From Candidatus Equimonas enterica (GTDB taxonomy: Bacteria; Bacteroidota; Bacteroidia; Bacteroidales; Bacteroidaceae), in contig JAGHRU010000052.1 of NCBI GenBank assembly GCA_018066225.1, forward strand, positions 1 through 51,608: a DNA stretch of 51,608 bases, read 5' to 3'. Under the pieces are notes generated by a model that had not been told where the DNA came from, did no database searches, and saw only the letters and a program-made list of their open reading frames with translations. Shown here piece by piece: positions 129-3,365 of this stretch (positions are counted from its first letter, which is position 1; each line of letters begins with the position of its first letter). The position numbers and the translations under genes were made by a program.

Positions 129-240
129 TCAGGTGGCTTTAGCCTTGGGGTTCCACCTCTTCCCATCCCGGACAGAGAAGTAAAGCCCAAGCGCGCCGAT
201 GGTACTGCACCGCAATGTGGGAGAGTAGGTCGCCGCCAAC
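129..240 (+). rRNA. rrf: 5S ribosomal RNA
   Basis: Bacteroidetes-type 5S sequence (GGTGGC...GGGGTTCCACCTCTTCCCAT...AGAGAAG...GCCGATGGTACTGC...GGGAGAGTAGGTCGCCGCC); ends approximate. Confidence 0.95.
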
Positions 241-247
241 TTACAGT

Positions 248-310: not shown

Positions 311-1006
311 TTAGCCATCTTCGCTTGTGTCGTATTTTAATAAAAGTGAATACATACTTTTATGAGCCGCCCAACCAACAAGGTCAATCAAGTCTCTTGC
401 GTTGTCTTCAAATGGGTCACATTGATCTCTATGGATATATATACCCTGCAATCCAGTGCCAAGGAAGTCACATTCAGATCCAATTCGGTCATAACAGAAA
501 CTTCCTTCTTCGGCAATCTCACATGAAGGGTTAGCTCCAAGTTTAAGGAGTCTCTCTGTTTCTTCAAAATCGAATTTATGTACAGCAACAAAGAGGTCAA
601 GATCAATTTCTCGATAACCTTTGGCTATCAAATTTTCTTTGGTCTCAAACAAAAATACATCTTCAGAGGTGTCATCTCTTTCGTTTCTGTAAAACCAAAA
701 ATCTGTGTTATAAAAATCAATAGGCTTGAAGACAACATTAAGTTTCTCTTCAAACAGTCTTTTGATTTCAAGGTTACGCTGCTTATTTTCTTCGATAATT
801 TGTCTGCAATCCTCTTTCCACGCCTCTGGATGCGCGAATATTATTTCCCAGCATTGGGTCATCCAATAAATAGGGCATGGAACTTCTTCTGAGAATTTGA
901 TGTCCTGGAGCAACGACTCATCGAAAGGCTCAGTGTTGAGTAGAGTCTTGAATGTTTCTGCATCGAAATTGAAAACAGCGTTTATATATTTCTGATTTGT
1001 AGTCAT
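311..1006 (-). CDS. Hypothetical acidic protein (231 aa) with a possible ankyrin-like motif, AT-rich
   Basis: Long ORF in AT-rich DNA; LFVAV..FDFEETERLLKLGANP resembles an ankyrin repeat; -7 box TATATTTG at 1023-1030 (minus strand). Confidence 0.75.
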   Translation of the reverse strand: MTTNQKYINAVFNFDAETFKTLLNTEPFDESLLQDIKFSEEVPCPIYWMTQCWEIIFAHPEAWKEDCRQIIEENKQRNLEIKRLFEEKLNVVFKPIDFYNTDFWFYRNERDDTSEDVFLFETKENLIAKGYREIDLDLFVAVHKFDFEETERLLKLGANPSCEIAEEGSFCYDRIGSECDFLGTGLQGIYIHRDQCDPFEDNARDLIDLVGWAAHKSMYSLLLKYDTSEDG

Positions 1007-1031
1007 AATAGTTCGTCAAATGCAAATATAT

Positions 1032-1078
1032 AAAAAAGGAATGGCAAACGGTCTCTTAAGGTTAATCCGAATGCCACA
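1032..1078 (-). ncRNA. Candidate small structured RNA 1 (promoter-hairpin-U tract)
   Basis: Minus strand reads GUGGCA-UU-CGG...CCG-UU-UGCCAU then UCC-U6; starts a few nt after TACTTTTG at 1082-1089. Confidence 0.45.
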
Positions 1079-1081
1079 CTG

Positions 1082-1112
1082 CAAAAGTAGCACTATATTC
1101 CCAACTGACAAA
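1082..1112 (-). promoter_or_regulatory. Bacteroidetes sigma-A promoter (-7 TACTTTTG, -33 TTTG)
   Basis: Plus-strand CAAAAGTA at 1082-1089 and CAAA at 1109-1112, 19-bp spacer. Confidence 0.6.
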
Positions 1113-1136
1113 GCAAAGAAGTGAAATAATGCAGAA

Positions 1137-1215
1137 ATGAACGCCAATTCACTGAAACAGCCATCATCGCTGACCTTCCAGCGCAAGGTGTTCTTCTCTC
1201 ATCGGTGGTTACCGC
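1137..1215 (+). pseudogene. Degenerate 5' fragment of Mu-like phage virion morphogenesis (gpG-like) gene
   Basis: Deleted and frameshifted paralogue of 1927-2100. Confidence 0.65.
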
Positions 1216-1292
1216 TTCTGCGAGCCTCATATCAAGTCTTGGCATACAGGTGCTACTTAATGTAGGCATCAACCTGCGCTATCATTTCCGCG

Positions 1293-1799
1293 TATCTGCC
1301 CAAGGGGTGTGGAAACTGTGACAAAAGGATGAATTTCGCCGCATACGACCCAAACCGCATCGAGTGTCAAGCGTGCTCAAATATCACACGCTATGCACTC
1401 AACCAAATAAAAAATCAGGCTGTACGCGATATGAAAGCGCAGCAATTATCACCTGTTCATGCACGAAGTACACGTTTTGTCACAGGCGAAGCATACTGGG
1501 GTAACAATGACCGCAAAAATGTTATACAACACATCGAATGACCATACATGCTGTCTGTTGCTCTTGATATCGACAACATCATGCACATAGTTGATAATGG
1601 AGAATTTGAGGCCATTGTACCTGAACACATGACACCTGCAAAAGAACGCAGGCACGTCATTAGATATTCAAAGTATATTTTCCAGCGCGATGTAAATATA
1701 AATGGTCATATTGTAACAAAAACACTTCAACTCAAATGCGAAGTGAGAGGTACGACAGAAGTGTGCAAGGAGTATCCTTATTCTATCAAAGAACTATAA
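1293..1799 (+). pseudogene. C-terminal fragment of MuF/gpF phage head morphogenesis protein with variable, possibly BECR/LPD3-like toxin extension; in-frame TGA at 1539-1541
   Basis: One frame reads YLPKGCGNCDKRMNFAAYDPNRIECQAC (CxxC...CxxC linker as I recall from Bacteroidales Mu-like MuF); ORFs 1329-1541 and 1548-1799 are in the same frame; lies directly upstream of a gpG-like start. Confidence 0.6.
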
Positions 1800-1867
1800 A
1801 AAGCAAGAAAGCCATACCACCGCTGTTAGGGTAATATCCCTGCACGCTAAATGGAACGACTTTCTCA
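1798..1867 (-). ncRNA. Candidate small structured RNA 2, convergent with the MuF-CT gene
   Basis: Minus strand GAGAAAGUCGU pairs with AUGGCUUUCUU (11 bp including G-U), inner CCAUU/GGUGG and AGGG-AUAUUA-CCCU, then GC-U5 overlapping the MuF-CT stop; TACTTTTG at 1872-1879. Confidence 0.5.
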
Positions 1868-1870
1868 CCC

Positions 1871-2192
1871 GCAAAAGTAGCACTATATTCTCAACCGAAC
1901 AAGTAAAATAACGAAAAAATGAAGAAATGAACGCAAATTCACTGAAAAAGGCCATCATCGCCGACCTGCGCGTGGAGTTGGCCGATGAATTTGACCGCAA
2001 CTTCCAGTGCAAGGCGTTCTTCTCTGAGCGGTGGCTGCCGCGGCGTGGCAAGAAGGCGCGGGGCTCGCTGCTTGTCGTCTCTGGTGCGCTGCGCCGCAGC
2101 GAGCAAATTTATGAGGCAGCAATATCAAGTCAGGCATACAGGTGCTGCTTGATGTAGGCATTGACCTGCGCTATCATTTCCGCGTATTTGCC
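1871..2192 (+). repeat. Imperfect direct repeat copy 2 (promoter, gpG-like start, 3' end of UDG-like gene)
   Basis: Aligns with 1081-1300. Confidence 0.9.
1927..2100 (+). pseudogene. Truncated Mu-like phage virion morphogenesis protein (gpG-like), first ~58 codons
   Basis: MNANSLKKAIIADLRVELADEFDRNFQCKAFFSERWLPRR...GSLLVVSGALRRS fits the F..NF...F...W.PR...L..SG.LRRS pattern of this family, then breaks off. Confidence 0.75.
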
Positions 2193-2849
2193 ATTTCTTT
2201 GCAGATAGCCCGGGTGGTTGAGGCGAAGGGCTGGGGGAAATGCGGAAGTGTCGAAGGTGAGGCGGTCGAAACAGAGCGGGGAGTTTGCAAGTCGTTCTTT
2301 CTGAAAATTGCCCATTACAGTCCGAATACGCCAATCATAGTTGGGGCCTGTGAGAAAAATAATCAAGTCGGGCTGCAAGATGCGTAGTTCGGCAAGAAAA
2401 ACGGGGAAATGCTGATGGGAGAGCGCGTCTATCGTGTCGTCGCAACCTGCCTCATACGCTTTGCCTACCTTGACGATGTTTTGGAAGACGAAGCCTGCGG
2501 TGGGGTTGCTGCTCATGATGCGCCCATTGAAGTTCCAATAGGGCGAATTGTAGCCGGGCTTCAAGATGGTGCCGTCTTTCTTCCTATGGTTTACGAAGCC
2601 ATCGTAGATGCCTTGTATTATTTCTACCGTTGCCACTTCGGGCGCAAGAATAGTGCCATCTATGCCGCCCCAACCTTGCGTTTCCTGACCGCAAATCATA
2701 ATTTTCCGTGGAGCATGGATGTAGTGCTGTGTCGCCTTTATCAAGAAAGGAAAAGCAGCGGCATGGGGTGTGTCAAGGAGGGGGAGGTATTCGTTGGTGA
2801 TAAATCCTTGCCAGTATCGTGCGTAGAGTGCGGTGAGTTGCTGATTCAT
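2130..2849 (-). CDS. Uracil-DNA glycosylase-like superfamily protein
   Basis: IMICGQET motif A-like, SPYW, EL.IL.PD.IIF.TG, and C-terminal HP motif B-like; start moved to ATG at 2849. Confidence 0.65.
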   Translation of the reverse strand: MNQQLTALYARYWQGFITNEYLPLLDTPHAAAFPFLIKATQHYIHAPRKIMICGQETQGWGGIDGTILAPEVATVEIIQGIYDGFVNHRKKDGTILKPGYNSPYWNFNGRIMSSNPTAGFVFQNIVKVGKAYEAGCDDTIDALSHQHFPVFLAELRILQPDLIIFLTGPNYDWRIRTVMGNFQKERLANSPLCFDRLTFDTSAFPPALRLNHPGYLQRNGKYAEMIAQVNAYIKQHLYA

Positions 2850-2879
2850 CGGAGCAGGTGGGAGGGAATGCAAGGTGTG

Positions 2880-3365
2880 CTAACGTGCTTTCACTGCCTT
2901 GTAGATGCGATCCATCTCGCGGCGGTCTTGCTTCTCTTTGAGCGTCTGGCGCTTGTCGTACTCCTTCTTGCCGCGGCAGAGCCCAATCTTGAGTTTAGCG
3001 CGGCCGTTCTCGTCAATAAACAGATGGAGGGGAACGATGGTGAAGCCCGGGTTGAGGGTGTCGCGTCCCAGCGCGCGTATCTCGGCACGGTTGAGCAGTA
3101 GTTTGCGGTCGCGGCGCACGGCGTGATTGTTGTAGGTGCCGTAGAAATACTCGGCGATATACATGTTTTTGACCCACACCTCGCCTTCGCGGATGTAGCA
3201 GAAGGTATCGACGAGGCTGGCTTTGCCCGTGCGGATGCTCTTGATTTCCGTGCCCGTGAGCACGATGCCTGCGGTGTAGGTGTCGATGATGAGGTAGTCG
3301 TGCTCGGCGCGTCGGTTCTTGATGTTGATACGCGATGCGGTGAGGGCTGTGTTCTTCTTGGCCAT
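2880..3365 (-). CDS. smpB: SsrA-binding protein SmpB
   Basis: [39 protein letters not shown] motifs. Confidence 0.97.

Follow-up and report, generated by a model that had tools for sequence, protein, structure and literature searches.

The muF/gpG relic between the 5S rRNA and smpB genes

The window, that is, the whole stretch of DNA analysed, is the 51,608-nt contig JAGHRU010000052.1 of Candidatus Equimonas enterica (GCA_018066225.1), a metagenome-type assembly that is 86% complete and consists of 235 contigs. The locus lies between the context genes for 5S rRNA (129..241, plus strand) and smpB (2883..3362, minus strand). Beside the former stands a low-GC gene of 231 aa without known family (311..1006, minus strand), which has its own promoter-like site at 1023-1030 and was present and open-looking in the strains compared below. 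It is followed on the same strand by predicted hairpin RNA 1 (1031..1081; 16-nt conserved motif at 1050-1065, U6 at 1032-1037) and promoter block 1 (1081..1100; TAnnTTTG -7 element at 1082-1089). The first copy of a gpG-like gene start (1137..1228, plus strand) and a duplicate of the 3' end of a UDG-like gene (1229..1300, minus strand) come next, and a short stretch shared between the latter and muF forms the joint to a muF linker and C-terminal domain (1293..1799, plus strand). Predicted hairpin RNA 2, approximately 70 nt long, occupies 1797..1870 on the minus strand, with its U-tract overlapping the muF stop. Promoter block 2 (1871..1890, minus strand; -7 element at 1872-1879) and the second gpG-like start (1927..2106, plus strand) then lead into the UDG-superfamily-like gene itself (2130..2873, minus strand), the relic being joined into the 3' end of this gene. 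The phage genes are wrecked, as the original prediction had described: muF is devoid of its N-terminus and has one in-frame TGA (1539-1541), the first gpG-like copy carries two internal deletions, and the second is truncated. Searching the window ORFs against Pfam, PHROGs, and NCBIfam yielded nothing useful; the gpG-like start matched a PF05069 gene at 60%.

The UDG-like fold of 2130-2873 was assigned by Atlas only, and neither Pfam nor NCBIfam supported it. In 22 of 22 relatives' loci, of which approximately 1.4 kb was read, this gene did not adjoin smpB, and its GC content was 51.5% compared to 61% in its neighbours. The gene may therefore have been acquired itself.

The unit of promoter, gpG-like start, and UDG-like end does occur twice, in three repeat blocks: 1081-1160 and 1871-1950 (84% identical), 1175-1215 and 2001-2041 (85%), and 1241-1300 and 2133-2192 (92%). 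No third copy was found elsewhere in the 86%-complete genome. In each copy a minus-strand TACTTTTG element, which like TAnnTTTG we take to be the Bacteroidetes -7 consensus, stands directly before the hairpin, which is followed by a U-run. The folding z-scores against dinucleotide shuffles were -2.95 for hairpin 1 and -4.8 for hairpin 2. Furthermore, only 8 of 648 TAnnTTTGC sites genome-wide were followed by a hairpin and U5, the two hairpins being among the 8. Both the folding and the rarity of such sites bear out the view that the two promoters point into different hairpins with U-tracts.

The 20-nt promoter block is identical between the copies, as had been stated; by itself it is not special, since the UDG-tail copies share a 24-nt run and look-alikes of the block are found ahead of tRNA genes within the genus, at most a hint of a strong promoter. 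Hairpin 1 is not wholly intact, having lost the terminator hairpin of its family. The use of the block as a marker was abandoned, since the look-alikes in the genus are ordinary promoters; the exact block gave 0 matches in viral sequences. In the congener G017, a promoter-like 19-mer at 17 sites is probably a mobile repeat.

The muF tails and the RNAs that follow them

The muF identity was given by homologs of 365-405 aa with PF04233, which were 60% identical; homologs of the window tail sit on two MuF subtypes. In the phage locus L093 and others, the tail homologs belong to a head module of portal, muF, and gpG-like genes, of which the window retains the muF/gpG junction only. The AlphaFold model of the window tail was an alpha/beta fold with a pLDDT of 93. 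Its best structural match by VIA was BrnT (Z 5.4, rmsd 3.3, 73 aligned residues), followed by CdiA-CT and RelE (Z 4-4.4), all of them weak matches; Foldseek returned none at E 0.001. The tail homologs share invariant H, K, Y, and K residues, and one distant homolog passed the LPD3 cut-off. The window tail is predicted to be BECR-like and LPD3-related. Neither viral contigs nor GenBank phages yielded any relative of it, and in 147 congeners the similarity did not go past the linker.

Hairpin 2 occupies the cognate position of this broken BECR-like tail. In L093, an intact homolog with a 58% identical tail, and in 4 of 4 distant homologs, the same position held a promoter and a short structured stretch without ORF. 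The statement that no protein immunity gene is present was borne out, as no small immunity ORF was seen beside the window tail or in any of the 5 intact homologous loci. The hairpins of the window and L093 share their architecture, but have no clear common loop sequence despite the 58% tail identity, and the folding z of the L093 hairpin was only -1.5.

A promoter-hairpin slot 3' of muF, as anticipated, was found in intact phages. We parsed 45 distinct muF junctions by a motif rule from Bacteroidetes Mu-like phages, whose loci were gathered by gpG, MuF, or tail proteins. Beside peptidase tails (papain-fold PF15644 or HExxH), a convergent promoter at approximately 190-270 nt and a minus-strand ORF of 68-92 aa were present in 14 of 16 junctions. 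Other tails (LPD3, CdiA_C-like, unnamed) showed a promoter no farther than 100 nt away and lacked an ORF in 19 of 20 junctions, among them L113 with its promoter at 13 nt; the non-coding stretch of these slots measured 45-100 nt. Tail-less MuF genes had neither the promoter nor an ORF in any of 9 junctions. This contingency is to be read as a pattern and not as a test on independent samples, since the phages are mutually related. Compared with shuffles, many of the short non-coding slots show no better folding (z from -6.0 to +1.1). For the window region and for 9 loci, Rfam gave no match at gathering score.

With regard to hairpin 1, 16 nt of it are shared with an RNA in genome G054 and with phage L496, where the RNA follows a MuF tail placed near CdiA_C by Atlas. 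A family model was built from 7 sequences. The RNA was found in 40 of 40 viral loci that had been collected by the CdiA_C-like tail protein (7 distinct RNAs), and in the control loci with other tails the model matched 1 of 37, that one being the same tail family at 60%. Two-sided changes were seen in 4 of 12 stem pairs across the 7 sequences. This CdiA_C-like tail is unrelated to the window tail, and its family is absent from the window. As judged from these sequences, hairpin 1 is therefore an orphan RNA. The separate terminator hairpin of the family, which overlaps the toxin's last codons, is missing from hairpin 1, and the latter ends directly in U6. Four related loci carry another loop.

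In all four non-chance one-mismatch matches to the hairpin-1 motif, the mismatch fell on the first base of an NAG triplet. A variable first base resembles the pattern expected of a leucine anticodon; the NAG of hairpin 1 lies in a 10-nt loop, not in a 7-nt loop. A 13-nt hairpin-1 pattern was discarded, its 33 viral loci having the look of chance matches. Contigs from the RNA runs X18 and X19 cover hairpin 1 plus neighbouring DNA, and as strand and level could not be read from them, they are no sign of expression. In two viral contigs (L497 and L499), the hairpin-1 family RNA and the tail's last codons were kept and the toxin was replaced by another ORF.

A second RNA family was linked to LPD3 tails. 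The motif search gave 120 viral loci, which reduced to 53 distinct junctions, and 44 of the 53 lay directly after an NQP/NQN tail. The RNA has a 7-nt loop on a 5-bp stem, and the loop is one base off that of the host tRNA-His. Its 13-nt core is invariant by construction of the search motif; two flanking pairs outside the motif covaried in 23 and 19 of 43 sequences, respectively, and RNAalifold on a MAFFT alignment recovered a 5-pair apical stem only. In the protein-first set of 48 LPD3 matches, 25 internal or open-ended ones were set aside and 23 terminal ones kept, and 21 of the 23 had a promoter-like site within 140 nt of the terminal domain; the loops of the NQP subgroup were related. At the sequence level, the hairpin-1 and LPD3 sets showed that RNA families track toxin families, in keeping with the idea of toxin-specific RNAs.

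Stand-alone LPD3 genes without MuF (L282-L300, L310, L316, L338, L359) also have convergent promoter-hairpin elements, so that the RNA pairing extends beyond Mu-like phages.

The longest exact antisense match between an RNA and its cognate mRNA, with the stop overlap excluded, was 6-9 nt for hairpins 1 and 2, L093, and L496, and 7-11 nt in 33 LPD3 loci. Since no exact match exceeded 11 nt, antisense control is unlikely.

Strain variation and orphan RNAs in host genomes

The strain comparison rested on 8 of the 20 runs that contained the locus. The sequences of X3, X5, and X11 departed from the window at 1346 and rejoined it at 1942, and their loose ends read as a different muF linker and a different gpG start. 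In X5, 202 other letters replaced 1016-1177, and one contig of X11 skipped 1230-2122. The UDG duplication was longer in X5 and X11, and X8 and X19 ran on from 2242 into muF-like sequence. Cassettes thus were swapped or missing between strains, as expected for variable cassettes, and the alternative ones may carry protein immunity.

The two units have a single gpG/UDG junction in common, and the swapped segments are bounded by conserved muF-linker and gpG arms. Taken together, these features make growth by duplication and homologous exchange likely. As an adjustment to the proposal of repeated capture of the muF/gpG junction by the host, duplication and recombination into a resident relic would be more likely than separate integrations.

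Pieces of X1, X5, X11, and X18 that match 1871-1925 and 1175-1207 come from a further tandem promoter/gpG-like array with different spacers and higher depth. This second array is absent from the present assembly and may be another locus or belong to a sister species.

The window tail has suffered three separate lesions, the TGA seen here and single-base deletions in X2 and X8; the X1 tail has no premature TGA. In total, the 854 nt of tail and gpG remnants had 29 variant sites, compared to none listed for the hairpins and promoters, which span 169 nt (Fisher p 0.005, with the strains being kin and swapped alleles not counted). The p value becomes 0.03 if the contig break at 1804 hides one variant, and it was 0.07-0.26 for hairpin 2 alone. 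The toxin decayed faster than the hairpins, as had been foreseen, with modest and fragile statistics that depend on the counting. The tail substitutions were 10 non-synonymous to 6 synonymous and hence not clearly neutral.

Orphan RNAs were also found among host genes elsewhere. Those of the hairpin-1 family were located in G013 (two), G070, G010, G054, and G573, the last one accompanied by a decayed tail remnant. The LPD3 pattern matched 120 times in genomes; an LPD3 homolog was upstream in only 37, and many others were chance matches. Eighteen matches without LPD3 were picked by hand and constitute a selected set, not a rate; 16 of them fold like the LPD3 family, and 10 have a flank of 2-3 kb free of an LPD3 gene, with muF remains near two of these 10. 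The LPD3-type orphans of this hand-picked set came from several Bacteroidales chromosomes. Some orphans had decayed (L327, L392). In two genomes (L505 and L325), CRISPR-like repeat sequences are found close to orphan RNAs.

Multi-unit arrays were not confined to the window. In the congener G054, a four-unit promoter-RNA array lies between host genes (G054:C147:28100-29500; L495 8100-9500), with a repeated spacer of approximately 250 nt and four different RNAs: one unassigned, one of the hairpin-1 family, one LPD3-type beside a stop-broken toxin remnant, and one like the RNA of a CdiA_C-type tail. Only one other congener had this spacer at length, there beside a lone LPD3-type RNA where the contig ends; long arrays are thus not shown to be common.

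The window's own genome (G000) held further elements. Beside tRNA-Pro among host genes lies another truncated muF, whose tail is CdiA_C-like, followed by a two-hairpin element with the same promoter type (C84:6160-7250; L455). At C75:~706 (plus strand), a promoter, a structured stretch of approximately 85 nt, and a U-run were seen on a 1-kb contig without toxin remnant, possibly another orphan RNA. Two mutually alike, unassigned promoter-hairpin-U elements lie between host genes at C174:~888 (plus strand) and on C187 (minus strand).

Candidate explanations and known systems

We consider it probable that the locus is a strain-variable muF/gpG relic keeping two predicted RNAs that likely act as immunity factors, each against a different MuF nuclease tail, and that the host has likely kept for acquired protection. 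The tails would be RNases and probably tRNases, arriving with the virion or produced in late expression. The RNA would be made constitutively and would bind the tail protein, with roughly even chances that it does so as an anticodon-stem-loop decoy. Orphan copies would, somewhat more probably, blunt the toxins of incoming phages, and new cassettes would enter when the muF-linker and gpG arms already at the locus recombine with related DNA of phages or strains. As to the mode of action, we infer that a decoy RNA most likely inhibits a tRNase directly. The decoy idea does not cover hairpin 2, since its loop bore no resemblance by eye to any host anticodon loop. A broader reading, which we put forward tentatively and hold to be rather less probable, is an RNA-based acquired defence of Bacteroidales: anticodon-mimic decoys would be harvested from phages, stacked by recombination, and would neutralise many families of virion-delivered tRNases, the phage side being a large undescribed class of toxin-RNA pairs.

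The RNAs could be true phage antitoxins and still be unselected debris in the window, short targets being rarely hit and the captures recent. The lack of significance for hairpin 2 alone, the terminator arm lost from hairpin 1, the cassettes missing or different in some strains, and the decayed orphans L327 and L392 would all agree with debris. However, hairpin 1 persists without any toxin trace and its family's stems change on two sides, orphans recur in many species, G054 packs four different RNAs with the toxins down to remnants, and the pooled p was 0.005-0.03. We regard debris as improbable, although it is the strongest of the rivals. Much less probable is that the convergent promoter and hairpin act in cis as a roadblock against leaky muF transcription, with the RNA as a by-product. 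The convergent geometry, the U-tract over the muF stop, and the presence of the element only where a tail exists fit such a roadblock; the family-specific invariant loops, the covarying stems, the ORF in the same slot beside peptidase tails, the RNAs retained far from any toxin, and the two phages that keep the RNA after tail replacement do not. We give equally little weight to the RNA as the tail's guide, cofactor, or packaged partner, or as acting on translation by itself, rather than as an inhibitor. The one-to-one pairing with tails and the tRNA-like loops fit this role equally well, and the sign of the RNA's effect is not given by sequence. Nevertheless, the RNA occupies exactly the small-ORF slot, no other candidate immunity gene accompanies the nuclease-type tails, the cognate mRNA offers no antisense target, and a cofactor would be of little use as an orphan. 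That misassembled alleles of different strains produced the tandem arrangement is hardly credible: the assembly is metagenome-type with 235 contigs and no single strain contig spans the whole stretch, but the copies are just 84-92% alike and overlapping contigs of X1 (940-1289 and 1272-2181) and X2 (697-1284 and 1390-1971) cross the junctions.

Host-retained RNA immunity can be set against the known systems, as far as the available text of the cited sources goes. Polymorphic MuF toxins, including Bxa and Apk2, have been described with protein immunity, a small ORF following 89.4% of 191 MuF toxin genes, and polymorphic-toxin immunity is presented there as protein-based (PMC5576092; PMC11699363). 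The present loci are alike in that a head-module gene combines a MuF domain with a variable C-terminal tail and has a small adjoining partner; however, the partner slot of nuclease-type tails here holds an opposite-strand, non-coding hairpin with no ORF. The same toxin domain families are found on MuF in the accounts of PBECR, LPD3, and CdiA_C phage polyvalent proteins, but the portions available name protein partners or none, and no linked RNA (PMC5512222; 10.64898/2026.08.28.747851).

If the RNA directly binds and inhibits an RNase toxin, the pairs would resemble type III toxin-antitoxin systems (ToxIN, CptIN, TenpIN). The latter, as described in the portion available, have repeats arranged in tandem upstream of their toxin, a terminator, and one transcript, whereas a single downstream convergent hairpin with its own promoter was seen here, with several unrelated toxin folds and the toxin fused to a virion protein (PMC3401426). 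Type I antisense systems, on the same partial basis, show extended complementarity to the toxin mRNA, which was not the case here (PMC3401426, PMC3632139).

The AID and rAID-1 clusters of Bacteroidales likewise comprise host-held immunity factors without toxins, with low GC and variable content, and the repeated spacers of the G054 array are a further likeness (10.1101/471110). Hairpin 1 and the orphans elsewhere, kept without cognate toxin, would match this feature if their role is immunity. However, the units here are RNAs and the toxins phage-borne; rAID-1, in the text available, denotes at least two co-directional low-GC protein immunity genes, compared to non-coding hairpins and toxin remnants at the present loci (10.1101/471110). 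By ORF lists and translations, no gene for a XerD-like recombinase, a 5' feature of rAID-1, was seen among the ORFs on either side of the window locus or of the G054 array. Phage tRNA variants that counter PARIS reportedly are full tRNAs which replace the cut one. They are similar in opposing a tRNA-related RNA to a tRNA-cutting nuclease, according to the part of the source available (PMC11464382), but the short hairpins here travel with the toxin and are unable to function as tRNAs.

A full-text literature search of mostly open-access main texts returned no account of MuF-linked small RNAs in the texts covered. As far as sequences can tell, the pairing of MuF tails with small RNAs and host-held orphans is widespread and apparently undescribed. 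Several unrelated nuclease-type tails are each paired with a predicted small RNA of their own where an immunity gene would be expected, and such RNAs are kept in hosts. This provides testable toxin-RNA pairs whose loop sequences suggest target tRNAs, and it proposes a function for one class of Bacteroidales small RNAs that lack annotation. Moreover, the action of MuF toxins in infection becomes directly testable, as a host with an orphan RNA should resist the incoming tail. In L129, a phage that is not Bacteroidetes-type in look, the muF stop is followed on the minus strand by an element with a motif that resembles a tRNA T-loop.
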